The notes: generated by a model from the letters alone, not told the origin. A stretch of 28,514 nucleotides of DNA from a bacterium (GCA_040752695.1 JBFMGO010000081.1:1-28514), one strand, 5' to 3'; shown: positions 2,473-28,295, counted from the first letter of the stretch. Numbers and translations: made by a program.

Positions 2473-2513
2473 ATCCCCGGGTTTAATTGATAATAAACCC
2501 GGGGATTTTTTTT
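2473..2513 (+). terminator. Intrinsic terminator (riboswitch expression platform)
   Basis: 13-bp perfect stem ATCCCCGGGTTTA (2473-2485) / TAAACCCGGGGAT (2494-2506) followed by a T-run to 2513. Confidence 0.9.
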
Positions 2514-2666
2514 ACCGGCTGATTTTTACCAGATGATTTTTTAACCAATTAATTTATACCGAATGAATCAAGATCAGACGTGTAGATCGCCTATTCAGGA
2601 AGTGGATCACACGTTCAAGAAGTGGATCATACATTCGGGAATTGGATCATGCATTCATGAATAGGA
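2504..2666 (+). repeat. Degenerate tandem repeats in the cobT leader (14-17 bp x4, then 20 bp x3.5)
   Basis: gattttt(t)accagat-like units 2504-2564; ttcaggaagtggatcacacg / ttcaagaagtggatcataca / ttcgggaattggatcatgca at 2594-2653. Confidence 0.85.
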
Positions 2667-2674
2667 GTTGGAGT

Positions 2675-3751
2675 ATGAATTTATTAGAGGCAACCCTCAA
2701 AGAAATTGTTCCCCAGGATGCATTTGCCCGTACAAGGGCAAAAGAGCGTCTTTCTCAGCTCACCATGCCTTTCTGGGCGCTTGGCCGCCTCATGGACCTG
2801 GCTGAGGATCTGGCTGGTATGACCTGTTCCAGCCGTCCTTCAACCATGAGAAAAGCCATCGTCGTCATGGCCGCCGATCATGGTGTTGCCGCAGAAGGAG
2901 TGAGCAAATACCCGCAGGAAGTGACCGCCCAGATGGTCGGGAATTTCGTGGAAGGTGGAGCGGGGATTAACGTGCTGGCCCGGCTGGCAGGAGCGCGGGT
3001 GGTAGTTGTCGATATGGGAGTAGCAGGCGATCTGAGTTCTCTGGTCAGTGAGGGAAAGATTCTTTCAAAGCATATGGGCAAGGGAACACGAAACATTGCT
3101 CGAGGTGCAGCAATGAGCCGTGATCAAGCTGTCCTTTGCCTGGAAGCAGGGATTGAGGTAGCCCGTGAGTTGGGGCCAACGGTTGATATCTTCGGCACAG
3201 GGGACATGGGCATAGGGAATACGACTCCGAGCAGTGCCATTCTCGCGGTCCTTGGTGGCTTGCAGCCTGTGGAAGTAACCGGGCGTGGGACCGGCATAGA
3301 TGACCAGCAATGGCATCAGAAGGTCTCTACTGTCAAAAAGGCTCTTGAAGTGAATCAGCCAGACCCCCTGGACGCCCTGGATGTGCTGGCCAAAGTAGGC
3401 GGATTCGAGATTGCCGGTATTGCCGGTTTGATTCTTGGCGCTGCCGCCTTGAGAAAACCGGTTCTGGTTGATGGGTTCATTTCAACAGCCGGTGCTTTGA
3501 TTGCCCATCGGCTTTCGCCTCATGCTGCCGATTACATGATCGCTGCCCATAAGAGCATGGAACAGGGCCACAAAAAGGCATTGGAAATTCTAGAGAAAAA
3601 GCCGTTGCTGGATCTTGATCTTCGTCTGGGTGAAGGCACGGGAGCTGCTCTGGCTATGAATCTGCTGGAAGCTGCTGCCGGTATCCTGACAGATATGGCT
3701 ACTTTTGAGGAAGCTCAGGTTTCCCAGGCCGTTGCGCACGCTATCGAGTAA
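2675..3751 (+). CDS. cobT: Nicotinate-nucleotide--dimethylbenzimidazole phosphoribosyltransferase
   Basis: Motifs MAADHGVAAEGVSKYPQEVT, GDMGIGNTT, VGGFEIAG, VDGFIS, LRLGEGTGA, MATFEEA. ATG 2675 follows GGAG. Confidence 0.95.
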   Translation: MNLLEATLKEIVPQDAFARTRAKERLSQLTMPFWALGRLMDLAEDLAGMTCSSRPSTMRKAIVVMAADHGVAAEGVSKYPQEVTAQMVGNFVEGGAGINVLARLAGARVVVVDMGVAGDLSSLVSEGKILSKHMGKGTRNIARGAAMSRDQAVLCLEAGIEVARELGPTVDIFGTGDMGIGNTTPSSAILAVLGGLQPVEVTGRGTGIDDQQWHQKVSTVKKALEVNQPDPLDALDVLAKVGGFEIAGIAGLILGAAALRKPVLVDGFISTAGALIAHRLSPHAADYMIAAHKSMEQGHKKALEILEKKPLLDLDLRLGEGTGAALAMNLLEAAAGILTDMATFEEAQVSQAVAHAIE

Positions 3752-3759
3752 AGACTCGC

Positions 3760-3830
3760 TTATGGGGAGTTGCTCATGAAGGGATTATTATGAAGGGATT
3801 ATCATGAGGGTTTGTTCATGATGGAAATTA
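3760..3830 (+). repeat. 14-bp degenerate tandem repeat x5
   Basis: ttatggggagttgc / tcatgaagggatta / ttatgaagggatta / tcatgagggtttgt / tcatgatggaaatta. Confidence 0.85.
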
Positions 3831-3850
3831 TCAAAGAACTTTAGGAAGCT

Positions 3851-4990
3851 ATGAAGCCGTCATCGCTTATAGACAAAGAGATGAATACATTAAAGACCGG
3901 TACCGTACGATATGAACATGGCGGAAACCTGAGAAAATTGGCTGAAATTGCCGGTTGTCCCCGTGAGGGCATCCTTGATTTTTCTGCGAATATCAATCCT
4001 CTTGGACCGCCCGGCTGGCTTTCGGACCTGATTAACGCAAAGATAAGCTCTTTAGTGCACTATCCCGACCCTGACTGTCGGTCTTTGGTCAAAGCCCTCA
4101 GTAATCGATATCAGATAAGGGAAGGCGAGATTCTGATCGGGAATGGATCGACTGAGCTCTTCTACCTCCTTCCGCGGGTTCTTCCCGTATCCAGCGCTCT
4201 CGTGCCGGTGCCCTCATACGCGGACTATACCAGGGCTCCGCAACAGGCAGGATTACCGGTTGAAGTTATCCCCCTGGAAGAGGGCAGCGGCTTTGAGCTC
4301 GATCTTTCAGCTCTCAGGGTAAGGCTGAAAGGGAATGAGCTGGTCGTGATCGGTCTCCCGAACAATCCCACCGGGCTTTTGTTCGATACAGACTCTTTGC
4401 GCATGCTGGCCGTGCAGCATCCTTCTACGTTCTTTATGATTGATGAGGCGTTTATCGATTTTATCGCAGGTGCTGACAGTTTAATCTCTCGTCGGCTGGC
4501 CAATGTCATAGTGCTTCGTTCGCTTACCAAGTTCTACGCCATTCCCGGCTTAAGATTAGGGTGGGCTGCGGCTGACAGCGCGATAGTCGAACGGGTGCGG
4601 GCAATTGCTCCCCCATGGTCAGTCAACTCAATTGCCCAGGCAGTAGGGGAAGCGCTTTTTCAGATGGATAATGAATATGCAGAGCGTACCCGGTCCCTGG
4701 TGCAGGAGGAGCAAAAGTTCATCCTCGGAGAACTTCGATCTTTTGGTGGATTAACGGCATTCCCTGGAAAGGCTAATTTCCTTCTGGTGCGGATCGATCA
4801 CGGTGAACTGAAGGCACCAGGCTTAGCCCGGCGGATGCTTAAGGAAGGTCTGGCCATTCGTGTCTGCGATAACTTTCCGGGACTGGACGATCGGTTTTTT
4901 CGGCTGGCGGTCAGAACAAGGGAAGAAAACAGGCGGCTTTTAGGAGCATTGCAGGCCGCACTGGGACGCGGTTATTCGCCCGGCAGATAA
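3851..4990 (+). CDS. cobD: L-threonine-O-3-phosphate decarboxylase
   Basis: HGGN, DFSANINPLGPP, HYPDP, GNGSTE, PNNPTG, DEAFIDF, SLTKFYAIPGLRLG (PLP lysine); cob operon context. Confidence 0.92.
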   Translation: MKPSSLIDKEMNTLKTGTVRYEHGGNLRKLAEIAGCPREGILDFSANINPLGPPGWLSDLINAKISSLVHYPDPDCRSLVKALSNRYQIREGEILIGNGSTELFYLLPRVLPVSSALVPVPSYADYTRAPQQAGLPVEVIPLEEGSGFELDLSALRVRLKGNELVVIGLPNNPTGLLFDTDSLRMLAVQHPSTFFMIDEAFIDFIAGADSLISRRLANVIVLRSLTKFYAIPGLRLGWAAADSAIVERVRAIAPPWSVNSIAQAVGEALFQMDNEYAERTRSLVQEEQKFILGELRSFGGLTAFPGKANFLLVRIDHGELKAPGLARRMLKEGLAIRVCDNFPGLDDRFFRLAVRTREENRRLLGALQAALGRGYSPGR

Positions 4991-5029
4991 TGATGAGATG
5001 AGCGTAGATGATGAGATGAGAGTAAGATA

Positions 5030-5989
5030 ATGAGATTAGAGTATCAGATTTTACTGGCTCTTGGACTTGATCTTTTGATTGGAGACCCGCGCTGGTTTCC
5101 TCATCCGGTTAAACTGATCGGAAGATCAGCCGCAGGATTGGAACCTTTTTTGCGGCGATCCTTCTCGAAACCGCGAGCGGCAGGTGTGGCGATGGTTCTG
5201 GTAATTACCTCCCTTACCGGCCTTGGGACTTTTTCCCTGATCGCGGGAGCACAGCGGTGGGGAGCACGATGGATTCATCCTCTGGCTGGAGATATCGTCT
5301 CAATCCTGGTTATCTATACTTCCCTGGCTGTACGGGATCTCATCCATCACAGTTACCGGGTTTATCGCTGTCTTAAGGATAGTGATCTCGACGGGGCCAG
5401 ACAGAGAGTGGCGCTGATGGTTGGCCGCGATACGGACCGGCTGGATGAGGAGGGTGTCGCGCGTGCAGCCGTAGAAAGTGTTGCCGAGAATATGGTCGAT
5501 GGCATTACAGCACCGCTCTTTTTTACCTTCCTGGCAGGACCGGTAGGGGCTATGGTTTACAAGGCTATTAATACTCTTGACTCAACCTTCGGTTATAAAA
5601 ATGAGCGGTATAGGGAATTCGGATGGGCTTCAGCAAGGATTGACGATGGAGCCAATTACCTGCCGGCCAGGCTGACTGCACCCTTAGTGCCGGTGGCCGC
5701 TGCTTTGCTGAAACTGAAACCTCTCGATTCGCTTCGGATACTCCGGCGTGACCGGAAAAAGCACCCCAGCCCCAATTCAGGCTTTGCCGAAGCTGCATTT
5801 GCCGGTGCCCTCGGAGTACAATTAGGCGGACTGAACTATTACTTTGGCTGCCCTTCGGCCAAGCCGGTTTTGGGAGACTCAAGCGTGAGACTGTCGATGA
5901 ATCATATTCTCAAAGCCAATGCCCTGGCCCTTGCAACAACAGCCCTGGCCACCCTCTTTCTCTTCGGGTTGCGAATGGCTCTTTTTTAG
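5030..5989 (+). CDS. cbiB: Adenosylcobinamide-phosphate synthase
   Basis: DLLIGDP..PHPV, VGRDT, ESVAEN..DG, YKAINTLDSTFGY, DD.ANYLPARL, HPSPNSG. Confidence 0.95.
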   Translation: MRLEYQILLALGLDLLIGDPRWFPHPVKLIGRSAAGLEPFLRRSFSKPRAAGVAMVLVITSLTGLGTFSLIAGAQRWGARWIHPLAGDIVSILVIYTSLAVRDLIHHSYRVYRCLKDSDLDGARQRVALMVGRDTDRLDEEGVARAAVESVAENMVDGITAPLFFTFLAGPVGAMVYKAINTLDSTFGYKNERYREFGWASARIDDGANYLPARLTAPLVPVAAALLKLKPLDSLRILRRDRKKHPSPNSGFAEAAFAGALGVQLGGLNYYFGCPSAKPVLGDSSVRLSMNHILKANALALATTALATLFLFGLRMALF

Positions 5990-6050: not shown

Positions 6051-7169
6051 ATGAAAAAAGCATTGCTCTTACTGGGACATGGCTCCCGTATTCAGGAGGC
6101 CAATGAATCCCTTTATTCTATAGCTGAGATGGTCAAGAAAAAAAGCGGTCTGACCATAGTGAAACCTGTCTTTCTTCAATTCGCCTCTCCTACCTTACTG
6201 GAAGGAATTGAATATTGTCTGGCCCAGGGAGTTGAGGAAATTCTCATCCATCCTTATTTTCTTTACGCGGGTGCCCATGTGCTTCAGGATATCCCGGCTA
6301 TGATTGAAAGCTTCCGCAGCGATCATCCCGGCGTGCGCATCAGAATTACTTCTCCTTTGGGTGTGCATGATAAGCTGGCGGAAATTGTTCTTGAGAGGCT
6401 TAAGGAAAATGGAGACCCTGGGATAGCAATCGGTGAGCCAGGAATCGGTGAGCCGATGATCGGGCAAGCACCCGATTTAGCTTTCCCTGATCAGACCTTG
6501 AGTGGTCAGCCCCTGTGTGATCAGATTTTGAGTGAACCGGCCTTGAGTGATCCAGATCTCTGTGATCCAGCCTTAATCGAGAGGAAAAGCTTTGCAATCA
6601 TATCGAACGAGATTCAGGAAGATATTTTCCCTGAGCCTCTTCGACCGATAGTCAAGCGGGTTATTCATGCTACGGGGGATGTCACTATTGCTTCAGCGAT
6701 ACGCTTTTCTCCACATTTTTACCAGCACCTCTCGGAATCCCTATCCGGGGGAGCACCCATTATCACTGATGTATTCATGGTCAAGGAGGGCTTAAGCCTG
6801 CCCCTTTTGGCCAGGTTCAATAACCCGGTTTTTTGTTTTATCCGGGATGACGAGGTAAGAGAGACAGCCGAAAAGGAGAAGATCACCCGCTCCATGGCTG
6901 CCCTGCGAAAAGGAGCGGCTCTCTATCCGGAAGGTATTTATCTGGTTGGAAATGCACCAACCGCTCTTCGTGAATTAATCCATTTATATCGCCGTCACGA
7001 GATTGCACCGGCAGGTATAGTTGGCTGTCCGGTTGGATTTGTGGGAGCGGCTGAGGCCAAAGAAGAGCTCTGCCAGACGGATCTTTCCTATTTCACCTGC
7101 CTGGGACCCAAGGGAGGAAGCCCTATGGCAGCAGCGGTTATAAATGCACTGTTAAAAGAGTTACCATAA
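6051..7169 (+). CDS. cbiX/cbiC: Fusion of a short CbiX cobaltochelatase and the cobalt-precorrin-8 methylmutase CbiC
   Basis: N-terminal LLGHGSR...PYFLYAGAHVLQDIP (CbiX); C-terminal IERKSF...RVIHATGD...GNAPTAL...PVGFVGAAEAKE...KGGSPMAAA (CbiC). The domains are joined by a repeat linker. Confidence 0.9.
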   Translation: MKKALLLLGHGSRIQEANESLYSIAEMVKKKSGLTIVKPVFLQFASPTLLEGIEYCLAQGVEEILIHPYFLYAGAHVLQDIPAMIESFRSDHPGVRIRITSPLGVHDKLAEIVLERLKENGDPGIAIGEPGIGEPMIGQAPDLAFPDQTLSGQPLCDQILSEPALSDPDLCDPALIERKSFAIISNEIQEDIFPEPLRPIVKRVIHATGDVTIASAIRFSPHFYQHLSESLSGGAPIITDVFMVKEGLSLPLLARFNNPVFCFIRDDEVRETAEKEKITRSMAALRKGAALYPEGIYLVGNAPTALRELIHLYRRHEIAPAGIVGCPVGFVGAAEAKEELCQTDLSYFTCLGPKGGSPMAAAVINALLKELP

Positions 7170-8168: not shown

Positions 8169-8219
8169 AGTGATGGTTATCGTATAGTGATGGTTTTTAT
8201 GTAGTGATAGATATTATGT
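8169..8219 (+). repeat. 17-bp degenerate tandem repeat x3
   Basis: agtgatggttatcgtat / agtgatggtttttatgt / agtgatagatattatgt. Confidence 0.8.
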
Positions 8220-9380: not shown

Positions 9381-9460
9381 GGTAAAGGATACCGAAGGGT
9401 ACAGAAAGGTACAGAGGGATGTATAAGAATGTAGAAGGATTCAGAAGGATAAAGAAGGAT
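9381..9460 (+). repeat. 10-bp purine-rich drifting tandem repeat x8 ending at the cbiO start
   Basis: ggtaaaggat accgaagggt acagaaaggt acagagggat gtataagaat gtagaaggat tcagaaggat aaagaaggAT(G). Confidence 0.85.
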
Positions 9461-10322
9461 GAAGGGACAGCCGTTATTAAGCGTGGAAAATATCAGCTAT
9501 ATTTACCCTGACCACACCCGCGCGCTGGAGGATGTTTCTTTGACCATTCGAAGGGGTGAGTTTTTTGCCGTCCTTGGGGCGAATGGCTCAGGGAAAACTA
9601 CCCTTTTGAAGATTCTCAACAGCCTCCTGAAACCTTCATCCGGCAAGGTATTATTAGAAGGAGCATCATTATCCTCTCTTGACAGGAATCTCCTTTTTTC
9701 CCGGATCTGTACGGTTTTTCAAGATCCCAATGATCAGCTCTTTGCTCCCACGGTAGAGCAGGACATCTCGTATGGTCCCTATAATCAGGGGCTATCCGAA
9801 TCCGAGGTTCGCCAGAGGGTGAAGAAGGCCCTTGCACTGGTTGATATGGGGTCATCGGCGCGAAAGTCAATCCATGCCCTGAGCTATGGACAGAAAAAAC
9901 GCATCTGCCTGGCCGGTGTTCTGGCCATGCAGCCCGAGGTTATCATTCTCGATGAACCGACCTCCGGCCTCGATCCCATGGGCGTCAGCGCTACTATGAG
10001 GTTGCTGAAGAAGCTGAACCAGGAAGAGGGGATCACCATGATCATGGCTACCCATATGGTGGATCTTGTCCCTTTGTTCATAAACCGGCTGGCTATCCTG
10101 CGCAAGGGGCGTATTTGCAGCGTGGGAACGCCGGAAGAAATTTTTCATAATGCGGATATGGTAAGGGATGCCAAGCTTCGCTTGCCCAGGGTAGCCCACT
10201 TGATGGAAATACTTAAGAAAGAGGATCACCTTGGCCTTGAAAAAATTCCCTTGACTATTGGAGAGGCAAGAAGAGTAATCGTGAATCTGATATCGAGGAA
10301 ATGGGAAGATGCCGATTCATGA
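9459..10322 (+). CDS. cbiO: ECF cobalt transporter ATPase
   Basis: Walker A GANGSGKTT, FQDPNDQLF, LSYGQKKR signature, LDEPT. Confidence 0.95.
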   Translation: MKGQPLLSVENISYIYPDHTRALEDVSLTIRRGEFFAVLGANGSGKTTLLKILNSLLKPSSGKVLLEGASLSSLDRNLLFSRICTVFQDPNDQLFAPTVEQDISYGPYNQGLSESEVRQRVKKALALVDMGSSARKSIHALSYGQKKRICLAGVLAMQPEVIILDEPTSGLDPMGVSATMRLLKKLNQEEGITMIMATHMVDLVPLFINRLAILRKGRICSVGTPEEIFHNADMVRDAKLRLPRVAHLMEILKKEDHLGLEKIPLTIGEARRVIVNLISRKWEDADS

Positions 10323-11673
10323 AAAGTCATCCATTCATGGGAAATCACCGGTTCATGAAAAGCCATCGTTTCATGAGAAGACGCCGCTTCATGGGCAGAT
10401 AACCGGAAAGTCGGGGCACCCTCAGCAATCACGACAACCACGCGGTGCAAATCTTCGGCCAGGCTATACGACAGGCTCCTGTGCAGCAGCGGCAGCCCGC
10501 GCCTGTGTGGAGCATTTGCTGCTGCAAAAAGATTTTGCAGTCACCAGCCTGCTCTTGCCATCGGGCGAGCGGCTTTTCCTTCATCCTGTCAATCCGCTCA
10601 TGGGCGAAAACTGGGCTGCCTGTGGAATTATCAAAGATGCTGGAGATGACCCCGATGTCACAGACGGGATCGAAATCCGGGCCAGGGTGGTAATGATCGA
10701 TTCGCAACCGGGACGTGATTCAGAACCAGGACTTGATTCGCGACCGGGAATTGATTTACAATCCGCAAATAGTACCAGGGGGAATAATACCGGGCTCGAT
10801 ACTATCGGGCTCGATATTATCGGGAGCAATGATATCGGGAGCAACGATATCTGGATTGTGGGCGGGGAGGGAGTGGGCCTGATTACCAAAGAGGGGCTGG
10901 AGCTTCCTCCGGGAGAGCCAGCCATAAATCCGGTTCCCCGCAGGATGATCCGGGATAATATCCGGGAGATATTAAAAGAGGCCAAGAGCTTTTCAGGCAG
11001 TGTCATGGTTGAGATTTCCGTTCCCCAGGGCAGAACAGTATCATTAAAAACCATCAACGCCCGTTTAGGCATTGTAGGCGGTATATCCATCCTGGGCACA
11101 ACCGGCCTGGTGGAGCCCATTTCAACCCTGGCCTGGCAGGATACCATTGTCGCCTGCCTTAAAGTAGCCAAAGCCTCAGGCTGCGAAGGTGTAGTACTCT
11201 CTCCCGGAAGATCAAGCGAGGCCGCAGCCAGAAGGATATTTCCCTGGTGGCCGGAAGAAGCCTTTATCATGATAGGCGATTATGTGGGGTTCTCCCTCGA
11301 TGAGGCCAGGAGACTCCATTTCCAGCAGATTATTATATCTGCCCAGTTTGCCAAATTGATAAAAATATCTCAAGGGTGCCTCCAAACGCATGTGCACCAT
11401 TCCCAGATAGATATGTCCTGGTTGTCCGAAATTGCCCATCAGACCGGGTATGGGAAGGAGACTCTCGCCTTTATAGCGCAGGCACACACTGCCCGCCAGA
11501 TTTATCAGTATTTGCGGGAGCGGTCAGACAGCCTCTTTTTCTCCACATTGGTTTACCGGATCTCGAAAGCCTTAGGGATAAGATGCATTCTTTTCTCCTA
11601 TGAAGGAGAAAAAATCGCAGATAGTCAGGAAGGAATGGAAGGGAATGGAATGGCAGGCCAGATCCAGATATAG
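10309..11673 (+). CDS. cbiD: Cobalt-precorrin-5B C1-methyltransferase with repeat-derived N-terminal tail and insertion
   Basis: LRPGYTTGSCAAAAA, KDAGDDPDVT, GGEGVG, PAINPVPRRMI, LGIVGGISILGTTG. Confidence 0.95.
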   Translation: MPIHEKSSIHGKSPVHEKPSFHEKTPLHGQITGKSGHPQQSRQPRGANLRPGYTTGSCAAAAARACVEHLLLQKDFAVTSLLLPSGERLFLHPVNPLMGENWAACGIIKDAGDDPDVTDGIEIRARVVMIDSQPGRDSEPGLDSRPGIDLQSANSTRGNNTGLDTIGLDIIGSNDIGSNDIWIVGGEGVGLITKEGLELPPGEPAINPVPRRMIRDNIREILKEAKSFSGSVMVEISVPQGRTVSLKTINARLGIVGGISILGTTGLVEPISTLAWQDTIVACLKVAKASGCEGVVLSPGRSSEAAARRIFPWWPEEAFIMIGDYVGFSLDEARRLHFQQIIISAQFAKLIKISQGCLQTHVHHSQIDMSWLSEIAHQTGYGKETLAFIAQAHTARQIYQYLRERSDSLFFSTLVYRISKALGIRCILFSYEGEKIADSQEGMEGNGMAGQIQI

Positions 11674-11720
11674 TCAAGATATAGTCAAGCCGGAGCCACG
11701 CCGGAGTCAAGGCGGATATA
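11666..11720 (+). repeat. 11-bp drifting tandem repeat across the cbiD stop
   Basis: agatatagtca x2, then agccggagcca / cgccggagtca / aggcggatata. Confidence 0.75.
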
Positions 11721-11786: not shown

Positions 11787-13118
11787 GTGAATGATATGAA
11801 AGCGTTAGGTGAGTGGTTACACATTGTGGGTATAAACCCTGTGGGTGAAAACCCTATGAGCCCTTGCCCCGAACAGGCGATTTTCAACCAGCAGTGGAAC
11901 GATCAGGGGAAGCAGGAGGGAAGCCAGCAGGGGGGCCATCAACGCTATTCTCCTTTTCTGCTCCATCCTTACTTACCTGATGATACCGTGCTTTTGGTCG
12001 GTGCGCAAAGGCTTCAGGGGCTTTTCCCGGGCTTCGGGGGGGAAAGGTTACTCCTCAAAGGGAATCTTGATTCCCTTATTGCTCAGCTCAAATCGTACCG
12101 GGGCAAGAGCGTGGTAGTTCTGGCTTCGGGTGATCCGAATTTTTATGGAATTGCCTCCACCTTGCTTCAGCACATTGACCCGCAGGAAATCGCTATTTAT
12201 CCTGCTGTAAGCTCTATGCAGTGGGCTTTTGCCAAAGCGAAAATTCCCTGGCATGATGCCAGCCTGATCAGCTTGCATGGAAGGCCGCTCCATCACCTGG
12301 CCAGAGTCTGGCCCAGCAGAAAGATTGGTATTTTTACCGATGGCTGCAATACACCGGCCCGAATCGCTGCCTTCCTGTTAGACCGGGGAGTCTGCCCAGA
12401 TGAATGCCGCTGTTTCCTCTTTGAAAATCTTGGTCAGAAGCATGAGAAAATGACTCAAGGCACACTTTCGGATCTTTCGAAAAGAGAGAGTGATCCTCTT
12501 AATATTTTACTCATCATGGGAGCAGGCCCAAAGAACCCCTTTAGCCGATATCCTGTGCCCGGACTGCCGGAAGAGGAGTTCTTCCATACCGCTGGCCTGA
12601 TTACGAAGCGCGAAGTTAGAACTGCCCTGCTTTCCTACCTGAGACCGCAAGAGGATTCAATTTTATGGGATATCGGGGCTGGAAGCGGCTCTGTCTCGAT
12701 AGAGGCTTCAAGGTTTATTCGATCCGGGATCATCCTGGCAGTAGAGAAAAAGCCTGCCGAAGTGGAAAATATCATTAAAAACCGTCAGAAATTCCAGACC
12801 CTCAACCTTGAGGTTATTTCAGGTGAGGCCCCCTCGATCCTGGCCGAACTTCCCGATCCTGACCGGATTTTCCTTGGCGGAAGCGGACGGTCTCTTGGCC
12901 CCAATCTGGAAACCTGCTGGCAGAGATTGAAAAAAGGCGGGCGGATAGGAGTGAATGTCATTACCCTGGAGAGTCTGGCCATAGCCAAAGAATTCTTATG
13001 TTCACAGGCTGCATCTTTCGATATGACGGCTATCCAGATTTCTCGAAAGAAAGACCTGGCAGGATTAACGGTTATGGAACCTTCTCCAGCCGTATATATT
13101 TTGGTTGGGGAAAAATAG
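11787..13118 (+). CDS. cbiET: Bifunctional cobalt-precorrin-7 C5-methyltransferase / precorrin-6B C15-methyltransferase (CbiE-CbiT fusion)
   Basis: VLASGDPNFYGI, PAVSSMQWAFA, SLHGR (CbiE); ITKREVR, WDIGAGSGSVSIE, PDRIFLGGS (CbiT). Start is GTG 11787 or ATG 11796. Confidence 0.93.
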   Translation: MNDMKALGEWLHIVGINPVGENPMSPCPEQAIFNQQWNDQGKQEGSQQGGHQRYSPFLLHPYLPDDTVLLVGAQRLQGLFPGFGGERLLLKGNLDSLIAQLKSYRGKSVVVLASGDPNFYGIASTLLQHIDPQEIAIYPAVSSMQWAFAKAKIPWHDASLISLHGRPLHHLARVWPSRKIGIFTDGCNTPARIAAFLLDRGVCPDECRCFLFENLGQKHEKMTQGTLSDLSKRESDPLNILLIMGAGPKNPFSRYPVPGLPEEEFFHTAGLITKREVRTALLSYLRPQEDSILWDIGAGSGSVSIEASRFIRSGIILAVEKKPAEVENIIKNRQKFQTLNLEVISGEAPSILAELPDPDRIFLGGSGRSLGPNLETCWQRLKKGGRIGVNVITLESLAIAKEFLCSQAASFDMTAIQISRKKDLAGLTVMEPSPAVYILVGEK

Positions 13119-13905: not shown

Positions 13906-13988
13906 CAGTATAATCAGAGCTGTATAACTGGAGCAGCATATTAGAGGGGCATAATCAGAGCAGTATAATCAGAGGGGTATAATTATAT
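13906..13988 (+). repeat. 14-bp degenerate tandem repeat x6 containing TATAAT copies
   Basis: cagtataatcagag / ctgtataactggag / cagcatattagag / gggcataatcagag / cagtataatcagag / gggtataattatat. Confidence 0.88.
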
Positions 13989-14569: not shown

Positions 14570-14648
14570 TAGAGTAACTCCTGTAGAGTAACTCCTGAGC
14601 AAGACCAGGTAAGTTATGACAATAAGTTACGAGGATAAATTATGAGGA
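14570..14648 (+). repeat. Perfect 14-bp duplication plus 13-bp x3 repeat overlapping the cbiF start
   Basis: tagagtaactcctg x2 (14570-14597); taagttatgacaa / taagttacgagga / taaattATGagga (14610-14648). Confidence 0.85.
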
Positions 14649-15487: not shown

Positions 15488-15550
15488 TAAACCAGCAAAT
15501 AGTAACCCAGGGAATAGTAAACCAGCAAATAGCAAACCAGTGCAAAGAGT
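15431..15550 (+). repeat. 15-bp drifting tandem repeat x8 crossing the cbiF stop
   Basis: gcccgtgaagagcag / acccgtgaagaacag / agccgtgaaaagcaa / accagcaaatagtaa x2 / cccagggaatagtaa / accagcaaatagcaa / accagtgcaaagagt. Confidence 0.9.
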
Positions 15551-15552: not shown

Positions 15553-16881
15553 ATGCGAAAAGAGCACTTGAATCAAGAGGAGATGAAGCTGAAGGTGAAA
15601 GGGGAAGGTAGAAAAGAGCTTGCTATTTACGCACTCACGCCCGGAGGCGAGGCCCTGGCTCTAATTCTGGGCCGTGAATTCCCCCATGCCGAGATTTTTC
15701 TCCCATCATTCAGTTCAGTGTCTGGCTCCGTCTCTGGCTCAGTGTCTGGCTCAGTCTCCTGCTCTGCATCCGGTACCATTCCCTTGAGTGTCGCACCTGG
15801 CGTCTCCTTATTCCCGGGTGGTATATCAAGCCCCTTGGGCAGTGCTGAGCCTCCTGATACATCGAGTGTTGAATCCAGCATCAAGGTTCGGATACGATTC
15901 TTTTCCGAAGGGATAGGAAAGGTAGTAGGCCACAATTTTCACCTCTTCAGGTCACACGTTTTTATCATGGCCACAGGGATCGTGGTAAGGAGTATAGCCC
16001 CATATCTCACGGATAAATGGAATGATCCGGCCGTGGTAGTGCTGGATGAAAAAGGAACCTATGCTATAAGCCTTCTTTCCGGGCATTGGGGAGGGGCGCA
16101 CGATCTCGCACGGGAGATTGCCCATAAGATCGGGGCATTTTCTGTTATTACGACTGCTACCGATGTAGGCAATAAGACAGCCGTCGAAGTCTGGGCCAAA
16201 AGACAGGGTTTCCGTCTGGAAAATACTTCCCGGGTCACAGCCTTTAACGCTGCTTTGGTAAGGAATATTCCTCTCTTGTGCTGGAGCGAGTATCCGGAAT
16301 ACCTCACCGCCCTCCCCCAGGGTATGATCGCGTGGAATGATGGCAAGATCGTATGTGACAAGGGCAAAATGGCATGGGATGAGGATATCAGGGCATGGCA
16401 GAGAGACAGCTCTCATCCTGTGGATTTTCTGGTAGTTATTTCTCCTCGTACTGATCTTCCGCAGTGGCCTGTTGAACACCTTTTGCTCCTGAGACCGCCG
16501 GTTCTCTGTCTTGGCCTTGGCTGTAACAGGGGTACTTCAGGGGAGGAGATCTATAACTGTGTCAAAGAGACACTGGAGGAGCATGGATACTCGATATTCT
16601 CCCTGGCCCTCCTGGGCACGATCGACCTTAAGGCTGACGAGCCGGGATTACTGGCTTTTGCTCGAAGGCTTGAGCTTGAGATTCGCTTTTTTCGAAAGGA
16701 AGAATTAAATCGCGTTGATCCTCCCAGCGCACCATCAAGCTATGTAAAGAATACACTCGGAGTAAAAGGAGTTTCAGAATGTGCAGCCATGCTTCTTTCG
16801 GGCAACAGGAATCTTGTGATTACCAAGGTCAAACGGGGCAATGTAACCATAGCCCTGGCTCAGAAACCAGCCCGAAAATAG
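15553..16881 (+). CDS. cbiG: Cobalt-precorrin-5A hydrolase (start may be 15583 or 15595)
   Basis: FIMATGIVVRSIAP, DKWNDPAVVVLDE, ISLLSGHWGGA, VITTATD, LGLGCNRG, KADEPGL, GVSECAAM. Confidence 0.93.
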   Translation: MRKEHLNQEEMKLKVKGEGRKELAIYALTPGGEALALILGREFPHAEIFLPSFSSVSGSVSGSVSGSVSCSASGTIPLSVAPGVSLFPGGISSPLGSAEPPDTSSVESSIKVRIRFFSEGIGKVVGHNFHLFRSHVFIMATGIVVRSIAPYLTDKWNDPAVVVLDEKGTYAISLLSGHWGGAHDLAREIAHKIGAFSVITTATDVGNKTAVEVWAKRQGFRLENTSRVTAFNAALVRNIPLLCWSEYPEYLTALPQGMIAWNDGKIVCDKGKMAWDEDIRAWQRDSSHPVDFLVVISPRTDLPQWPVEHLLLLRPPVLCLGLGCNRGTSGEEIYNCVKETLEEHGYSIFSLALLGTIDLKADEPGLLAFARRLELEIRFFRKEELNRVDPPSAPSSYVKNTLGVKGVSECAAMLLSGNRNLVITKVKRGNVTIALAQKPARK

Positions 16882-16910
16882 AAACAGGAAAAATACCAGA
16901 AACAGGAAAG

Positions 16911-17840
16911 TTGACGGAAAAAGGAAGGTTATCGGTTATCGGCCTCGGGCCGGGGAAGAGAGAGTATTTCACCCTTCGGGGCCTTCAGGCGCTGGAAGAG
17001 TCAGAGGTTATTATCGGGTATGAGCGGTATACCCGGCTGGTCAGGGATTTTTGGCCGGGAAGGAAGGTGCTGTCTTCAGGGATGAGAAAGGAGCTTGCAC
17101 GGTGCAGGGAAGCGCTATCGCTGGCCAGGGAAGGAAAGCGTGTGGCTCTTATCTGTGGCGGTGATCCAGGGATTTATGGCCTGGCTGGTCCTGCCCTGGA
17201 GCTTTTGCTCAGAGAAAAGGAGCATGAAGAAAACCCGACCGGGACAAAGACAGAGACCAGGACCGGGACGAATACCGGGACGAAGACGGAAACCGGGACC
17301 GGGACGACGAGCCGGATTGACACAGAGACCGAGGCAGGGATTAAGGCTGGGACCGACACCGGGAGCGAGACCGGCACGGAGACCGGAACCGAAATCGAGA
17401 TCGAGATTGTTCCCGGCCTGTCAGCGGTGAGTGCGGCAGCATCTATACTCGGAGCACCGCTTATGAATGACATGGCCATAATCAGCCTCAGTGATCTCTT
17501 AACTCCCTGGCCAGTGATTGAAAAGCGTCTTAAGGCTGCGGCTGAGGCAGATTTTGTTACCGCCCTGTATAATCCCAAAAGTATAAAACGCACCTCTCAG
17601 ATTTTAGAAACCCAGGCTATTTTCCTGCAATTTCGGTCCCCCGATACCCCGGTAGGAGTGGTCCACAATGCGCTCCGGGATGAAGAAGAGAGAAAAATCA
17701 TAACCACTCTGCAAGAGTTTACCAAAGAGGAGATCACCATGCTCTCTCTGGTAATTATCGGGAATTCTCAAACCCGCACCATCAGAGGAAAAATAATCAC
17801 TCCCAGGGGATACGAAAGGGTCTATGATCTTGGGAAATGA
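16911..17840 (+). CDS. cbiH: Cobalt-precorrin-3 C17-methyltransferase with Thr/Gly-rich insertion
   Basis: VIGLGPG, GGDPGIYGLA, IVPG.SA..AAASILGAPLMND, ISLSDLLTPW, LYNPKS, ITPRGY. In-frame TTG 16911 follows AGGAAAG. Confidence 0.93.
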   Translation: MTEKGRLSVIGLGPGKREYFTLRGLQALEESEVIIGYERYTRLVRDFWPGRKVLSSGMRKELARCREALSLAREGKRVALICGGDPGIYGLAGPALELLLREKEHEENPTGTKTETRTGTNTGTKTETGTGTTSRIDTETEAGIKAGTDTGSETGTETGTEIEIEIVPGLSAVSAAASILGAPLMNDMAIISLSDLLTPWPVIEKRLKAAAEADFVTALYNPKSIKRTSQILETQAIFLQFRSPDTPVGVVHNALRDEEERKIITTLQEFTKEEITMLSLVIIGNSQTRTIRGKIITPRGYERVYDLGK

Positions 17841-19429
17841 TCAGAGTGAATGGGAAGACTATCGGAATGAATGGGAAAACCGTCGGAATAACAGGGGAGA
17901 AATCCCTCAATAAAAAGGTAATAATAACCGATAACAAGGTGAAGATCCCCCGAATCATGGTGGCGGGTGCGCAGAGCGGCTCAGGCAAGACGACCCTGAC
18001 TATCGGGCTGCTCCATCTTTTAAAAAATCAGGGCCTCGAGGTGTCGCCCTTTAAGGTAGGCCCCGATTTCATCGATCCGGGCCACCACAGCCACATCAGC
18101 GGTCTGGCCTCACGAAATCTCGATGGCTGGATGCTTTCCAAGGGATATAATCTTTCGACCTTTATCCAGCATGCAATGGGCAAAGACCTGGCCCTGATTG
18201 AAGGAGTCATGGGCCTTTTTGACGGGCTCAGCGGCCTTCGTGAGGATGGGAGCTCGGCTCAGATGGCCAAGTGGCTCACCTGCCCGGTAATACTGGTCAT
18301 TGACTGCCGCAGTATGGCCCGCAGTGTAGCTGCGCTGATTCAAGGATATGAGCACTTTGACCGCTGCGTGTCTCTGGCGGGGGTCATCTTTAACCGGGTA
18401 GGCAGCCAGAGACATTTTGCTTACCTGAAAGAGGCTGTAGAAGCCTACTGCCACGCCGAGGTACTGGGCTCCTTTCCCCGCGATGAGTCGCTGGTTATCC
18501 CTGAGCGGCATCTCGGGCTGGTCACAGCAGAAGAAGAACCCATACCGGAATCTTTCTTGAACCTGATTGCCTCCGTGTTAGAAGAGAGGGTAAATATCGA
18601 GCGGATACTCGCCATTGCCCGGAGCGCTCAGGATATGGCCCCATCATCATCTTCTTCTCTCCTTCTTAATCCTCCCGCGGAAGAATTTCAGGTTCTTCCC
18701 TTATTCTCATCATCATCTTCTTCTTCATTCTCCTCCTCCTCCTCATTCTCATCATCACCTTCATCATTCTCCCCCTCCCCCTCACCTTCCTCCCCCCTGA
18801 AAGGGATGATAAGAAGAGTGGCCGTGGCCAGAGACGAGGCATTTTGCTTTTATTATCAGGACAATTTGGACCTTTTCAGACAGGCCGGAGCGGAATTGCT
18901 CTTTTTCAGTCCCCTGCGGGACCAGTCGATTCCAGATTTCTGCGAGGCCCTCTACCTTGGCGGGGGATATCCTGAGCTGTATGGACAGCAGCTTTCTCAA
19001 AATATCAGCATGCTTGACTCCATTCGAAAATTCATTGAGGAGGAAGGACATGTTTTGGCCGAGTGCGGCGGGTTTGTCTATCTTACCGGAGGCATAACGA
19101 CCTTTGATCAACAGTTTTTTCCCCTTGCCGGCATCTTTCCTGTCACCTCGCGGATGGAAAAGAGGGTTCACCTTGGCTATCGTGAGATTCACATCAGTGA
19201 GGATTGCCCGCTTGGCCCTGCGGGCAGCAGGCTTCGGGGGCATGAATTTCACTATTCGACCGTGCAAAAGATGCCTGATACCATATCAAGGGCTTATGAG
19301 GGCTTTGATTCGAATGGCAGGGAGAGGAAGGTTGAGGGATTTCGATATAAAAATTGTCTGGCTGGCTATCCACACATTCATTTCGGCTCACGTCCTGAGA
19401 GTGTTTACTCTTTTTTACAAAGGGCTTAG
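17837..19429 (+). CDS. cbiA: Cobyrinate a,c-diamide synthase
   Basis: SGSGKTT, FKVGPDFIDP, IEGVMGLFDG, ERHLGL, AVARDEAFCFYY, GGGYPE, AECGG, GHEFHYS. Confidence 0.95.
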   Translation: MIRVNGKTIGMNGKTVGITGEKSLNKKVIITDNKVKIPRIMVAGAQSGSGKTTLTIGLLHLLKNQGLEVSPFKVGPDFIDPGHHSHISGLASRNLDGWMLSKGYNLSTFIQHAMGKDLALIEGVMGLFDGLSGLREDGSSAQMAKWLTCPVILVIDCRSMARSVAALIQGYEHFDRCVSLAGVIFNRVGSQRHFAYLKEAVEAYCHAEVLGSFPRDESLVIPERHLGLVTAEEEPIPESFLNLIASVLEERVNIERILAIARSAQDMAPSSSSSLLLNPPAEEFQVLPLFSSSSSSSFSSSSSFSSSPSSFSPSPSPSSPLKGMIRRVAVARDEAFCFYYQDNLDLFRQAGAELLFFSPLRDQSIPDFCEALYLGGGYPELYGQQLSQNISMLDSIRKFIEEEGHVLAECGGFVYLTGGITTFDQQFFPLAGIFPVTSRMEKRVHLGYREIHISEDCPLGPAGSRLRGHEFHYSTVQKMPDTISRAYEGFDSNGRERKVEGFRYKNCLAGYPHIHFGSRPESVYSFLQRA

Positions 19430-22619: not shown

Positions 22620-22628
22620 ATTGTACCA
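22620..22628 (-). promoter_or_regulatory. Possible extended -10 promoter of arsM
   Basis: Minus strand reads TGgTACAAT about 40 nt upstream of the start; no good -35. Confidence 0.4.
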
Positions 22629-23067: not shown

Positions 23068-23097
23068 CAGATAAAACAGATTGGAGGTTTTTTGAGT

Positions 23098-23871: not shown

Positions 23872-23972
23872 CATCTTTGACGATGAGGAGCAGGAAAATG
23901 GGCTCGTGCAAGGTCCATGATTCTATCATAATTAATAGAGATAATACCATATATTACATAAAAGGTTTAACA

Positions 23973-24380: not shown

Positions 24381-24478
24381 AATGAGCCGTTAAAGAAAAC
24401 AAGCCTGATGATGTTCATAATAAAGTCCATAGTCCTGTAGTATACAAAATAGGTGTAAATAAGCAGGATCTATGATAG

Positions 24479-24907
<429 letters not shown>

Positions 24908-24979
24908 TCTACCCGCAATGGGAAAAAGAGAAGGGAAGGATATTCAGGGTATCACGGTTGTCTGAGAGATGTTTAGATA

Positions 24980-25008
24980 TTTACAGTAAAATTAAAAAAT
25001 GTTAAAAT
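24980..25008 (+). promoter_or_regulatory. Probable sigma70 promoter
   Basis: TTTACA (24980-24985), 17 nt, TAAAAT (25003-25008), with TG in the extended -10 position. Confidence 0.5.
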
Positions 25009-25018
25009 TTATTAATAG

Positions 25019-25777: not shown

Positions 25778-25973
25778 TCTCCTCATAATAGCCTCCTCAT
25801 CCAGTATTCTCATCAGAATGAGCAGGGCAGGTAGGGAAGAAGTATGGGCTTAAGTGATAGAAAATATATGCACGAAAAAGGAAAATCCACGAAGGGTTCG
25901 GCAGAAGGAGTTTCCCTCTGGAAGTGGTTGCTCTTTAAAGTCTGGTTACTATTCCACCCCCAACATTGGTAAT

Positions 25974-26085
25974 AATGCCCAGGCAATGCCAAGGCACCCT
26001 AAAGGCAATGCCAATTGGCGAAAACCCTGATTACCATAAATAAGCTTTACACCATACATAAGCTTTACGCCAAAATAAGCCTTAC
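25974..26085 (+). repeat. 11-bp x4 and 18-bp x3 degenerate tandem repeats
   Basis: aatgcccaggc / aatgccaaggc / accctaaaggc / aatgccaattg; accataaataagctttac / accatacataagctttac / gccaaaataagccttac. Confidence 0.8.
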
Positions 26086-26134
26086 TCGAAGGATTACCAT
26101 AAGTTTTGCAGCCAATGAGGAAGGATAGAAGCCA

Positions 26135-26572
26135 ATGAAAAAATCGACAAGAACGATAGTATCCATAACGCTGCTCTTAGCGCTCAGTCTTTTCTCTTGT
26201 ACCAAAAGGAGCAGGTACGATGAACTCAGTGACAGGATTATTGTATTATTCCAGCAAGGGCAGTATCCTGAAGCAGAAAAGTTAGCGAAAGAGGCGGTAA
26301 CGATCGCCAAAGAGACGTTTGGCCCAAATCATGCAAAAACAGCAGCTTCTCTGGATACACTGGCCATGATATTCTGCTCCCAAAGAAATTACGAGCAAGC
26401 TGAACCTCTCTATAAGGAAACCTTAGCCATAATGGAAAAAGTATCGGGGCCGGAGAGTCCTGATCTGGCACATGTTCTGGAAAATATGGCCGGGTTCTAC
26501 CGGACTGTGGGGAATGAAGAAGAGGCTGAAAGACTGACTGCGAGACTGAATAAGATTCGGTCCAATCACTGA
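26135..26572 (+). CDS. Tetratricopeptide-repeat lipoprotein
   Basis: Signal peptide ending in lipobox LFSC; kinesin-light-chain-type TPRs (QGQYPEAE..., GPNHAKTAASLDTLA...YEQAEPLY). Confidence 0.8.
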   Translation: MKKSTRTIVSITLLLALSLFSCTKRSRYDELSDRIIVLFQQGQYPEAEKLAKEAVTIAKETFGPNHAKTAASLDTLAMIFCSQRNYEQAEPLYKETLAIMEKVSGPESPDLAHVLENMAGFYRTVGNEEEAERLTARLNKIRSNH

Positions 26573-27264
26573 CCGATGGCCCCTGCACCTGTATTTCCCT
26601 GCGGTAAAAACACTGCACCGACTGCACTCACAAAGTCGGCAATGTAGTCAGTGCCGCTCCAGGCAAGGTCGATATCAAAACACCTTTTGACAAGGGAAAT
26701 GACATTTACCCCCAACGATTCAAGACTGTATATCCTCTCCATCGGCTTTTTGCAACTCTGATCACCTTCCTCAACTGCACACACCTTACAGGCTGAACAT
26801 GCACCAGAGCCTGCAACCAGATACCCTGCCTCACGCTGTTTCAAAAGATCGTTTACCAGGAGGTCTCTGGCCATTCTAAAACAGGAACGGTATCTTTCTT
26901 CAATGAACTCGAAATACCCGGTGGGCACTCTCAGACATATCACTCTCGCTGCATGAGCTCCTTGTATGTAGTGGAGGAAAGAGGGACTGTAGGGTGGGCA
27001 TGACAGGTTTTTTCCATACTTCGGGCACCCCTCGCACGGCACTTTATACCGGTCGCCATGGTTGATATCCGCCAGGGTCACTATACCTTCGTACCGTTCA
27101 TACAATAGCATGCTGCCCGTGGCATCGACATGTTCGATGACGTCAACATTCCATTTCTGATCATTTGTATGTTTCTGATCACTTGTGTGCTTTTGATTGC
27201 TTGTATGCTTCTGATCGTCGTTTGTGTGCTTCTGGTTTTTTCTTTGCTGCGGCTGGTAAGCCAT
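26566..27264 (-). CDS. DUF2284 Cys-rich predicted metal-binding protein with repeat N-terminus
   Basis: CEGCPKYGKNLSCPP, GACSACKVC...CKKP, SLESLGVNV. Confidence 0.85.
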   Translation of the reverse strand: MAYQPQQRKNQKHTNDDQKHTSNQKHTSDQKHTNDQKWNVDVIEHVDATGSMLLYERYEGIVTLADINHGDRYKVPCEGCPKYGKNLSCPPYSPSFLHYIQGAHAARVICLRVPTGYFEFIEERYRSCFRMARDLLVNDLLKQREAGYLVAGSGACSACKVCAVEEGDQSCKKPMERIYSLESLGVNVISLVKRCFDIDLAWSGTDYIADFVSAVGAVFLPQGNTGAGAIGQ

Positions 27265-27293
27265 TTCCCCAATTGTTCCTTTCTGCTCTGTAT

Positions 27294-28295
27294 CTATCTT
27301 CTGGCAATCCGGGACTCACAAAAGTGGATTAACCGGCTGATGAGCTGATTCGTGGGGGCAGATATGCCCAGTGGTAAAGCCATTTGGCTGATGGCACCGT
27401 TGAGGGCATCGATTTCGGTCTTTTTCCCTTTTTGCAGATCCTGAAGCATGGAGGCATGGTGAGAAGCAGTGGCCGGGATGAGATTGTTGATGAGGTGTTC
27501 AAAGTATTCTCCTGCTGTTTCTTGAGGCAACACAATCCCTTTTCGCTCCGCCACCTGGTAAATTTCACTCACGATCTCTTTCATAATGGTCCTGGTTTCC
27601 TGGTTTTCCCCCAATTCCCCGTAGGTCACTCTGAGCAGCGCGGCCAGTGGATTGAGAGCACAATTGTATAAGACCTTTGCCCAGATGAATGGAAAGATAT
27701 TGTCGACCATACCGGTCGGGATGCATGCTTTCTGGAAATCCTCAACAATTTGCCTGATCTTTTCCGATTGCCTGATCTTTCCCGAAGATGATCCATCCTG
27801 CTCCGCAGCACCCGCGGCAGCACCCGCCGGAGCATCCCCTATGGCTCCCAGCAAGACTTTATCTGCACATACGGTGACTTTCGCCTCTCCAGGCCGGGGA
27901 ATCTCAACACCAAAAATCACCCTTCCGCCAACGGTGCGGCTTATGGTTGCCTGATCAGCGATCTTTTCCACATTCCCAAGCCCATTCTGGAGTGAGATCA
28001 CCAGGCCATCGTCAGCTAACAGAGGAACAATCTGCCTTACAGCTTCAGCAGTATCAAAAGACTTAACACACAGGAGAATGATCTGACAGGGGGAGAGAAT
28101 TTCCTGAATTGAGGAAAAAGTCCTCAGTCCTTCAGCCCTGTGCTCTCCCCAGATCCCGTGAATATATAACCCGTGCTTTCGGATTTCTTCAAAATGCCCG
28201 CCTCTTCCCAGAAACCCTACTTCCTGACCGGAAAGATGGAGAAATCCACCGAATATGCTTCCCAATGCTCCTGTTCCTGTTACCAGATACTTCAC
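27294..28295 (-). CDS. panE: 2-dehydropantoate 2-reductase (ketopantoate reductase)
   Basis: GTGALG Rossmann motif, LCVKSFD, SLQNGLG, WAKVLYNCALNPL, SMLQDL..GKKTEIDALNG. In-frame GTG at 28295 follows AAGGGG. Confidence 0.9.
   Translation of the reverse strand: MKYLVTGTGALGSIFGGFLHLSGQEVGFLGRGGHFEEIRKHGLYIHGIWGEHRAEGLRTFSSIQEILSPCQIILLCVKSFDTAEAVRQIVPLLADDGLVISLQNGLGNVEKIADQATISRTVGGRVIFGVEIPRPGEAKVTVCADKVLLGAIGDAPAGAAAGAAEQDGSSSGKIRQSEKIRQIVEDFQKACIPTGMVDNIFPFIWAKVLYNCALNPLAALLRVTYGELGENQETRTIMKEIVSEIYQVAERKGIVLPQETAGEYFEHLINNLIPATASHHASMLQDLQKGKKTEIDALNGAISQMALPLGISAPTNQLISRLIHFCESRIARR

Follow-up and report, generated by a model that had tools for sequence, protein, structure and literature searches.

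Short head-to-tail duplications that arise independently of existing repeats have been described in Escherichia coli carrying the topA allele R168C, a mutant form of topoisomerase I (TopA). They measure a few to ~36 bp, and point mutations are not raised in the mutant (Bachar et al., PMC6954433). That report describes no motif, leaves open whether topA acts directly or indirectly, and calls the birth of repeats from non-repeating DNA unknown. Here, we describe a 28,514-nt stretch of bacterial DNA (the window; contig C81, JBFMGO010000081.1, of the assembly GCA_040752695.1, hereafter G000), in which a cob/cbi operon for cobalamin biosynthesis is riddled with degenerate short tandem arrays, together with the tandem duplications of the whole genome. 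We consider it probable that TopA, by cutting, allowing extension and rejoining, seeds exact doublets of 10-25 bp in unique DNA, and that homology-guided growth, ordinary decay and selection for reading frame follow later.

Frame-sorted, repeat-rich genomes are already known (Borgs, PMC9879509; Portiera BT, PMC3673631; Ehrlichia, PMC10710844), and so is the connection between duplications and a topA mutant (PMC6954433). The G000 duplications resemble those of topA R168C in being de novo and repeat-independent, with point mutations not raised and a link to topoisomerase I. However, R168C is a laboratory mutant with a changed pocket residue, whereas in the natural genome G000 R168 is intact, the products are fixed by the hundreds, also within core enzymes, and a two-ended, one-strand mark is seen, a C four bases upstream of the junction (C(-4)). 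With trapped yeast and human topoisomerase II (Top2) they would share a topoisomerase cut that starts the duplication of unique DNA; the Top2 products measure 2-5 bp and arise through a staggered double-strand break and non-homologous end joining (NHEJ; PMC11477040), in contrast to 10-25 bp on one strand, with no Ku found, in G000. Borg repeats are likewise pervasive, have nearly all unique units, keep to multiples of 3 in genes only and encode low-complexity protein segments, but they are perfect, have at least three units, lie on archaeal extrachromosomal elements and were ascribed to polymerase slippage (Schoelmerich et al., PMC9879509), while the G000 repeats sit on a bacterial chromosome, are for the most part degenerate and would begin as microhomology-free doublets. 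Portiera BT shows lineage-specific repeat gain, longer spacers and no clear deletion bias (Sloan and Moran, PMC3673631). It is, however, a reduced endosymbiont with a 7-bp spike, loss of dnaQ, mutL and ssb and faster substitution (PMC3673631), unlike G000, whose genome measures ~6 Mb, whose periods spread broadly over 12-24 bp, and in which the mismatch repair motifs are intact and substitution is not faster. Ehrlichia ruminantium shares genome-wide expansion at spacer tandem repeats, but is ~64% coding with repeats focused on non-coding DNA (PMC10710844), compared with ~81% coding and an array in 553 of 4,226 called genes in G000. The G000 repeats differ from slippage-derived microsatellites and variable-number tandem repeats in lacking a 1-6 bp excess and microhomology seeding, although growth inside arrays does use long homology; they differ from repetitive extragenic palindromic (REP) elements, CRISPR and insertion-sequence target duplications in that the units are distinct and the C(-4) mark holds when doublets with repeated flanks are left out. 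A literature search, with most subscription journals outside its coverage, returned no paper describing natural bacterial duplications with a C(-4) mark at their junctions.

The G000 assembly comprises 6.05 Mb in 239 contigs (48% GC, 96.6% complete). As the youngest events we took isolated, exact doublets of at least 11 bp (11-46 bp), of which G000 has 283, or 47 per Mb. Densities elsewhere were 75 per Mb in G001 (9 in 120 kb), 37 in G004, 15 in G002 and 8 in 79 outside loci, and the Markov control had none; the relatives G001, G002, G004 and G005 are represented by 0.12-1 Mb each, a small sample except in the case of G002 (978 kb). The doublet period was a multiple of 3 in 72 of 78 doublets within genes, against 63 of 182 between genes. 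Among the 182 intergenic doublets, overhangs of 0, 1, 2 and 3 bp were present in 84, 40, 22 and 11, where random placement gives 53, 28, 12 and 4%; the overhang was therefore near random in 157, and a tail of 25 had at least 4 bp, where ~3% is expected. Since slippage and flap re-annealing both need microhomology, they do not explain most doublets. A repeated flank was present in 33 of the 283.

When 16 positions around the 250 boundaries of the no-overhang doublets were scanned without bias, 109 boundaries had a C at -4 (p = 5e-13), and its mirror, a G, was present in 87. Within a strand, the marks at the two ends attracted each other (odds ratios 7.7 and 7.1); across strands they repelled each other (0.26 and 0.25). 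Among these 125 doublets C(-4) stood at both ends on the top strand in 27 and on the bottom strand in 37. When register shifts were allowed and local nulls applied, C(-4) was found at both ends of the same strand in 122 of 234 doublets against 43.5 expected (z = 14). In an offset scan over 28 informative offset/base pairs, C(-4) reached 60 vs 14, and some A and T positions were raised less than twofold. The mark was present in doublets with unique flanks (82/165; other offsets 15-35), within genes (22/45) and between them (63/123), in both contig halves, and in older doublets with one mismatch (45/98; other offsets 16-25); it was still seen in decayed two-copy arrays (0.31 vs 0.21). Eight-base doublets, which are mostly due to chance, had no mark. 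In the sisters it was found in 8 of 14 doublets of G002 (3.1 expected) and 5 of 15 of G004 and G005 together (2.0 expected); it was not clear in the order and class samples (3/13) or in outside loci (1/7). Both exact doublets of at least 11 bp in the window (at 11666 and 14570) carry the mark, and that at 14570..14597 is, judged by its sequence, the window's clearest young TopA-marked event.

A unique orientation could be assigned to 120 of 255 doublets. T at -5 accompanied the C at both ends (62 and 57; background 31%), where G was also low upstream. The upstream end alone was additionally enriched in T(-1) (56 vs 32, p = 0.002) and A/T(+1) (87 vs 60, p = 0.0005), and of the two ends of marked doublets only the upstream one resembled a whole cut site, apart from T(-2), which was not enriched. 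On replication strands the counts were 41 vs 27, resting on a weak GC skew.

Topoisomerase I and reverse gyrase, unlike topoisomerase III, follow the rule of a C at the fourth base before the cut (PMC3467081, PMC7587558), and the motif of E. coli TopA in vivo is TCNTT^A/T, with C(-4) required (PMC9352719; PMC3467081). TopA is linked covalently to the 5' phosphate, whereas its grip on the 3'-OH strand is non-covalent (PMC7587558). This 3'-OH strand lies in the C(-4) pocket. A single type IA topoisomerase gene was found in G000. The equivalents of R168, R169, D172, R173, Y177 and Y319 are intact in its product, including the C(-4) pocket (R169, R173, Y177) and the catalytic tyrosine. The TopA proteins of the family (L258 and relatives) share a few changes at sites conserved elsewhere, e.g., Ile to Thr in the PFITS motif and Ala to Ser after the catalytic loop.

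As the TopA cutting pattern lies at both ends of about half of the newest doublets, the enzyme likely creates repeats from unique DNA, and the two-ended, one-strand, asymmetric form of the mark points to direct catalysis. In the reaction that we propose, TopA would cut once, at the start of the future unit, and stay bound to the 5' end, while the freed 3'-OH would be extended by DNA polymerase I or another polymerase, which would displace the strand ahead of it over 10-25 nt. The 3' end so made would then dock in the C(-4) pocket and attack the phosphotyrosine, upon which TopA would rejoin the 5' end to it; this rejoined 3' end would have to suit the pocket, but it would not itself have to lie at a site of cutting. 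Replication would fix the extra copy. Later, and this part we infer with less assurance, doublets would grow into multi-copy arrays by one to three units per step through misaligned pairing, with growth outpacing loss in the G000 species and copies decaying by ordinary mutation; within genes, selection would retain in-frame events only. The long tracts of the window may have started as TopA doublets in the same way, because the length range matches and decayed two-copy arrays are marked.

Several observations weigh against TopA as the maker. About half of the doublets lack the mark, and G001, the genome densest in doublets, has only 2 of 9 that fit (1.3 expected). Arrays of at least three copies, which make up most window tracts, have boundary C at the background level (0.22 vs 0.22) and their motif score does not exceed background; of 48 sharp-ended arrays, 15 fit at -4, compared with 7-18 at other offsets, and of 93 doublets nested within arrays 58 fit, against 59.3 expected in a comparison of low power. 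T(-2) of the E. coli motif was not enriched (41/120), a transcribed-strand bias was absent (27 vs 33), and G000 TopA has no unique substitution at an otherwise invariant position. Doublet density is alike across the family (15-75 per Mb), yet arrays of at least three copies number 161 per Mb in G000 and 18 in G001; seeding alone therefore does not explain the array excess of G000. The E. coli mutant itself was used as a cross-check, with 34 distinct topA R168C events, defined by position and length, whose reference units matched the tables of the report (PMC6954433); three rows of the form '20 bp->20 bp' or '19 bp->19 bp', one case of existing-repeat growth and repeated events were left out, and two R35P events were shown apart. 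Only 8 of the 34 fit C(-4), with 7.0 expected, and 8 of 22 did so among units of at least 8 bp (4.4 expected, the cut being chosen afterwards). This comparison neither confirms nor excludes the model, because R168 has a part in placing the strand, and selectivity may be reduced in the mutant. Taken together, the TopA mark, drawn from the statistics of one assembly, accounts for the seeds better than for the long tracts. A TopA site that propagates itself within arrays was rejected as an explanation, as there was no motif excess and the best C was not extra conserved (0.103 vs 0.115).

Arrays were defined as merged Tandem Repeats Finder (TRF) calls at a score of at least 50; rows of the window were also counted at a score of at least 30. 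The window has 61 rows at the lower threshold and 23 merged arrays at the higher one, and its density of 8.1 arrays per 10 kb ranks sixth among contigs of more than 15 kb. Genome-wide, 2,022 arrays (334 per Mb) were called. In contrast, the mean over 50 Markov simulations of the window was 0.1 rows (maximum 2), and a 2-Mb Markov-5 genome gave 5 arrays, or 2.5 per Mb. The initial annotation had described pervasive repeats with many unrelated units, sorted by reading frame and belonging to no dispersed element family, and all of this was upheld; the topoisomerase I mark at the junctions did not figure in it. Each period that it named was recovered, by TRF or, for the 21-mer of CbiG near 16324, which escapes TRF, by lag analysis (lag-21 identity 0.60 vs 0.19-0.30 at off-period lags). 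Among arrays with periods of 6-40 bp, the period was a multiple of 3 in 599 of 619 within genes and in 397 of 1,069 between genes, and 1,887 of 1,902 units were distinct. The intergenic periods form one broad peak at ~12-22 bp, with 7-mers in 17 of 1,069 arrays; a lag spectrum obtained without a repeat detector also peaked at 12-21 bp and was low at 1-6 bp. Arrays span ~82 bp on average and occupy 5.5% of intergenic and 2.1% of coding DNA. Genes were called with a custom hexamer model. Its start codons are imperfect (CbiD, for example, is begun too late), so that a few coding arrays were tallied as intergenic. The end copy of an array had also been said to merge into functional sequence. Among 404 intergenic arrays this was borne out for stop codons (77 touch one, 59 expected) and not for start codons as placed by this caller (25, 59 expected).

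At periods of 6-40 bp, array density was 322 per Mb in G000, 248 in G001 (27 in 109 kb) and 135 in G002 (132 in 978 kb), compared with 39-109 in other family members, 0-87 in the order, 0-200 in the class (12-60 kb each) and 49 at 79 cbiF loci of other prokaryotes. Arrays of at least three copies numbered 66 per Mb in G002 and 16 at the other loci. In the G002 sample, a 7-bp period is found in 26 of the 72 arrays that lie outside genes, a Portiera BT-like spike that G000 lacks, so the sister species differ in repeat spectrum. Two unrelated cbiF loci (L068 and L030, titled Omnitrophota and Selenomonadaceae) are also rich in degenerate arrays of 7-8 bp. The insertions of G000 in CbiX-C, CbiD, CbiE/T, CbiG, CbiH and CbiA are missing or much shorter in G002, and in G001 as far as its contig reaches. 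A block of 16 genes measures 16,009 bp in G000 and 14,139 bp in G002, with G000 longer in 14 of 15 intervals. Across 537 ortholog pairs, extra segments of at least 10 aa numbered 108 in G000 and 16 in G002, while short indels showed no excess in G000 (1-2 aa: 129 vs 153 and 59 vs 69). When 43 gene triples were polarised with G004 as outgroup, G000 had gained 240 aa and lost 20; G002 had gained 74 aa and apparently lost 245, part of which may represent independent gains in the other two. Syntenic spacers (298 pairs) were longer in 141 cases and shorter in 77, and 83 of 169 insertions of at least 8 aa were periodic at p ≤ 0.05. The ortholog and spacer comparisons, together with the frame sorting, thus bear out the proposal of an active process of local duplication by which spacers and enzyme loops become longer, under selection for in-frame events. 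The alternative offered with it, a general lack of deletion bias, is not supported in that form, the excess being restricted to segments of at least 10 aa.

Neighbouring copies had been described as the most alike. This applies to several window tracts, such as the CbiX-C linker (identities at successive lags of 0.55, 0.44, 0.36 and 0.28) and the array at 2593 (Table 1), but not to CbiH or the N-terminus of CbiD, nor genome-wide within TRF arrays (94 vs 92 of 207). In insertions defined by orthologs, lag 1 exceeded lag 3 in 66 of 83, an advantage that is partly due to the repeats being local within a longer insert. Growth by one unit at a time predicts a lag ratio of ~3-4 to 1; the flat profile of the data falls between simulations without block duplication (516:160) and with 50% of it (305:618), and is bracketed by sequential growth with some block duplication. 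Exact doublets nested within arrays have long overhangs, and array growth therefore looks homology-guided. In arrays of at least five copies, 83 variants were shared between copies and 139 were single, and 5 of 439 intergenic multi-copy arrays were perfect with at least three copies. A one-step burst as the origin of multi-copy arrays was rejected, since it predicts 10-14% perfect triplets and 4 of 240 were seen. The copying had further been called error-prone, for which the data give no support: differences between copies are rich in transitions (transition/transversion ratio 2.15) and neutral-looking, with an equilibrium GC of 41%, near that of intergenic DNA, and no sequence-context or double-substitution excess was found among them; repeat-induced hypermutation was not seen. 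Amino-acid changes unique to one genome, an indirect gauge of the point-mutation rate, numbered 931 in G000 and 1,031 in its sister (43 gene triples). Four-fold sites differ between G000 and G002 by ~0.7-0.8 substitutions per site, which allows ordinary decay to a copy identity of 75-85%; copying therefore need not be error-prone.

It is conceivable, though we think it unlikely, that TopA makes the doublets while the long degenerate arrays come from replication slippage at chance microhomologies with an expansion bias, in which case the mark would belong to a side stream. The unmarked arrays of at least three copies, the tail of long overhangs among isolated doublets and the scarcity of arrays in relatives that are equally rich in doublets all agree with such a division. 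Against it, the array periods (mode 14-21 bp) lie within the length range of the doublets and not at 1-6 bp, the C(-4) persists in decayed two-copy arrays, and the original ends of any array that had begun as a marked doublet would lose their sharpness as it grew and decayed.

Another nicking process that leaves a C four bases from its cut, such as excision repair at TC sites or some unknown nickase, would dispense with TopA. UvrC cuts 4-5 bonds 3' of a lesion. The shortness of the mark, which is mainly T-C, and the weak fit of the E. coli R168C events would suit this explanation, but it gives no reason for the C(-4) at the downstream end or for T^A/T at the upstream end only, whereas C(-4) is documented for topoisomerase I and reverse gyrase (PMC7587558) and only one type IA gene was found. 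We regard it as improbable. An origin akin to NHEJ, comparable with the duplications at trapped Top2, would also yield duplications without microhomology (PMC11477040; PMC6954433). For the marked half it is contradicted by the depletion of cross-strand marks, and NHEJ was rejected as a candidate cause because Ku was not found in any of five genomes and an ATP-dependent ligase was not found in G000 or its family. As a general account it appears very improbable; the unmarked half of the doublets could nevertheless arise by such a route.

We give little credence to the view that ordinary slippage products accumulate because, as in Portiera BT, repair has been lost or selection is weak. The initial annotation had pointed to the repair and replication genes, but the suspects proved to be either intact in their motifs or unfound across the family members searched, those with few arrays among them, and none of the suspects therefore explains G000. 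A DnaQ-type exonuclease was not found in G000, G001, G002 or G004; proofreading loss was nevertheless rejected, as this gap is shared by the family and the PHP metal ligands of DnaE are intact. Mismatch repair loss was rejected because MutS and MutL, including the MutL endonuclease motif, are intact. Proteins of MutS2 length were not found in the family; G000, G004, G005 and G007 have a MutS-family protein of ~610-630 aa, and the f2 genomes have one of MutS2 length (~810-830 aa). A flap-nuclease defect of the rad27/polA type was rejected, as the acidic residues of the PolA 5'-nuclease are intact and duplications of that type require microhomology. A lack of adduct-removing nucleases was ruled out by the presence of xseA, sbcD, recJ and rnhA. 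Insertions in MutL, PolA and SbcD could be taken in favour of impaired repair: PolA (L129) has 26 aa inserted in the polymerase domain, MutL (L182) a repeat-filled linker (703 aa vs frames of 599-650 aa), and the match to SbcD (G000:C16:57274-58236) is split. However, protein divergence is not raised, and most doublets lack the microhomology that slippage needs. A Y-family polymerase is represented in G000 by a 165-aa partial frame beside lexA (L188, G000:C125) that looks broken or truncated, and none was found in G001 or G002. The two reverse transcriptases of G000 have counterparts in repeat-poor relatives, and gyrase and a second GyrA/ParC-type gene are both present.

That the tracts are assembly artefacts has a negligible chance of being right: one contig overlap contains mismatches suggestive of mixed strains, but an assembler would not sort periods by frame, nor would it yield a neutral mutation spectrum or a strand-specific C(-4) mark shared with other genomes, most arrays are short, and the mean array span of ~82 bp falls short of the contig overlaps of 127 bp. 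The N-terminus of PolA lies both at the end of contig C93 and at the start of C200 with several differences between the copies, which suggests mixed strains or low coverage at that place.

Besides lpxB, the window comprises the cob/cbi operon, which runs from cobT to cobQ and is preceded by a cobalamin riboswitch at 2232-2416 (Rfam RF00174, 97.7 bits). A few more genes follow, the last of them panE; gene names are backed by NCBIfam/Pfam matches. A hairpin with a T-run follows the riboswitch, and the first tandem array merges into that T-run. Arrays and doublets are listed in Table 1. Within the large insertion of CbiD (10699..10855), each array is anchored at one edge of the ancestral loop, and CbiA of G001 has a shorter Ser-rich linker at the site of the 18698..18784 tract.

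Table 1. Tandem arrays and exact doublets of the window (insertions relative to orthologs where given)
Feature	Coordinates	Strand	Evidence
14-bp array, 2.4 copies, extending the T-run that follows the hairpin behind the cobalamin riboswitch	2509..2541	+	TRF, sequence
20-bp degenerate array, 3.5 copies, upstream of cobT	2593..2661	+	TRF; lag identities 0.71/0.63/0.57
Exact 9-bp doublet within cobT, C at -4 of both ends; chance possible for a 9-mer	3410..3427	+	
14-bp array, cobT-cobD spacer	3774..3833	+	TRF
19-bp array, from cobD stop into cbiB start	4990..5043	+	TRF
15-bp array forming a 38-aa insertion in the CbiX-CbiC linker, not in G002	6420..6559 (TRF 15-mer at 6488)	+	
17-bp array, cbiM-cbiN spacer	8169..8219	+	TRF
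10-bp purine-rich arrays, cbiQ-cbiO spacer, ending at cbiO start	9384..9464	+	
18-bp array that extends the N-terminus of CbiD by 24 aa, not in G002	10301..10393	+	
18-bp and 15-bp arrays forming a 43-aa loop insertion in CbiD (15-mers at 10791/10818)	10699..10855	+	
Exact 11-bp doublet with 2-bp overhang at cbiD stop; in one register, C at -4 of both ends	11666..11689	+	
Degenerate 11-bp continuation of the 11666 doublet	11683..11716	+	TRF
15-bp and 12-bp arrays forming 8-aa and 19-aa insertions in CbiE/T	11825..11933	+	
14-bp array, 5.6 copies, cbiL-cobO spacer	13906..13983	+	TRF
Exact 14-bp doublet, no microhomology; on the + strand, both ends have a C at -4	14570..14597	+	
13-bp array leading into cbiF start	14610..14648	+	TRF
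Two 15-bp arrays, in the C-terminal extension of CbiF and then over its stop	15432..15540	+	
12-bp array and older unrecognisable insert; CbiG ~48 aa longer than that of G002	15715..15880	+	
21-bp degenerate array forming a 21-aa insertion in CbiG	16324..16407	+	Lag analysis, G002 comparison
18-bp array, cbiG-cbiH junction	16880..16931	+	TRF
6/12/36-bp hierarchical array forming a ~54-aa Thr/Gly/Glu insertion in CbiH, not in G001 or G002	17225..17405	+	
21-bp array, CbiA N-terminus	17840..17889	+	
3/6/39-bp Ser/Pro tract forming a 41-aa insertion between CbiA domains relative to G002	18698..18784	+	
11-bp (25974) and 18-bp (26033) intergenic arrays	25974..26085	+	TRF
18-bp array, N-terminus of DUF2284 protein	27155..27234	-	TRF, domain match
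18-bp (27750) and 12-bp (27803) arrays within PanE	27750..27834	-	TRF, domain match

More than 7 kb of the window (18785-26032) are free of arrays at a score of at least 50. This block contains cobQ, followed by an A/T-rich-looking part with arsM, a TIGR00266 gene, a Nudix hydrolase, a glyoxalase and an RNase_H_2 protein, and is possibly newly acquired DNA in which repeats have not yet accumulated. Two related palindromic elements, at 22939-23007 and ~28354-28381, are distinct from the tandem arrays and resemble a dispersed REP-type family.

Whether a wild-type bacterial TopA directly makes new tandem repeats, and together with later growth has put low-complexity loops in hundreds of proteins, including PolA, MutL, SbcD and most cobalamin enzymes, and lengthened the 16-gene block by 13%, is in our estimation an evenly balanced question. 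If it does, the TopA mark would turn the birth of repeats into a defined reaction that could be rebuilt with purified proteins, and the C(-4) signature could be scored in any genome. The lineage has a large genome and shows no sign of faster protein evolution, and in its polarised genes insertion exceeds deletion, contrary to the usual bacterial deletion bias. Its insertions also reveal loops of core enzymes that tolerate 20-60 extra residues.

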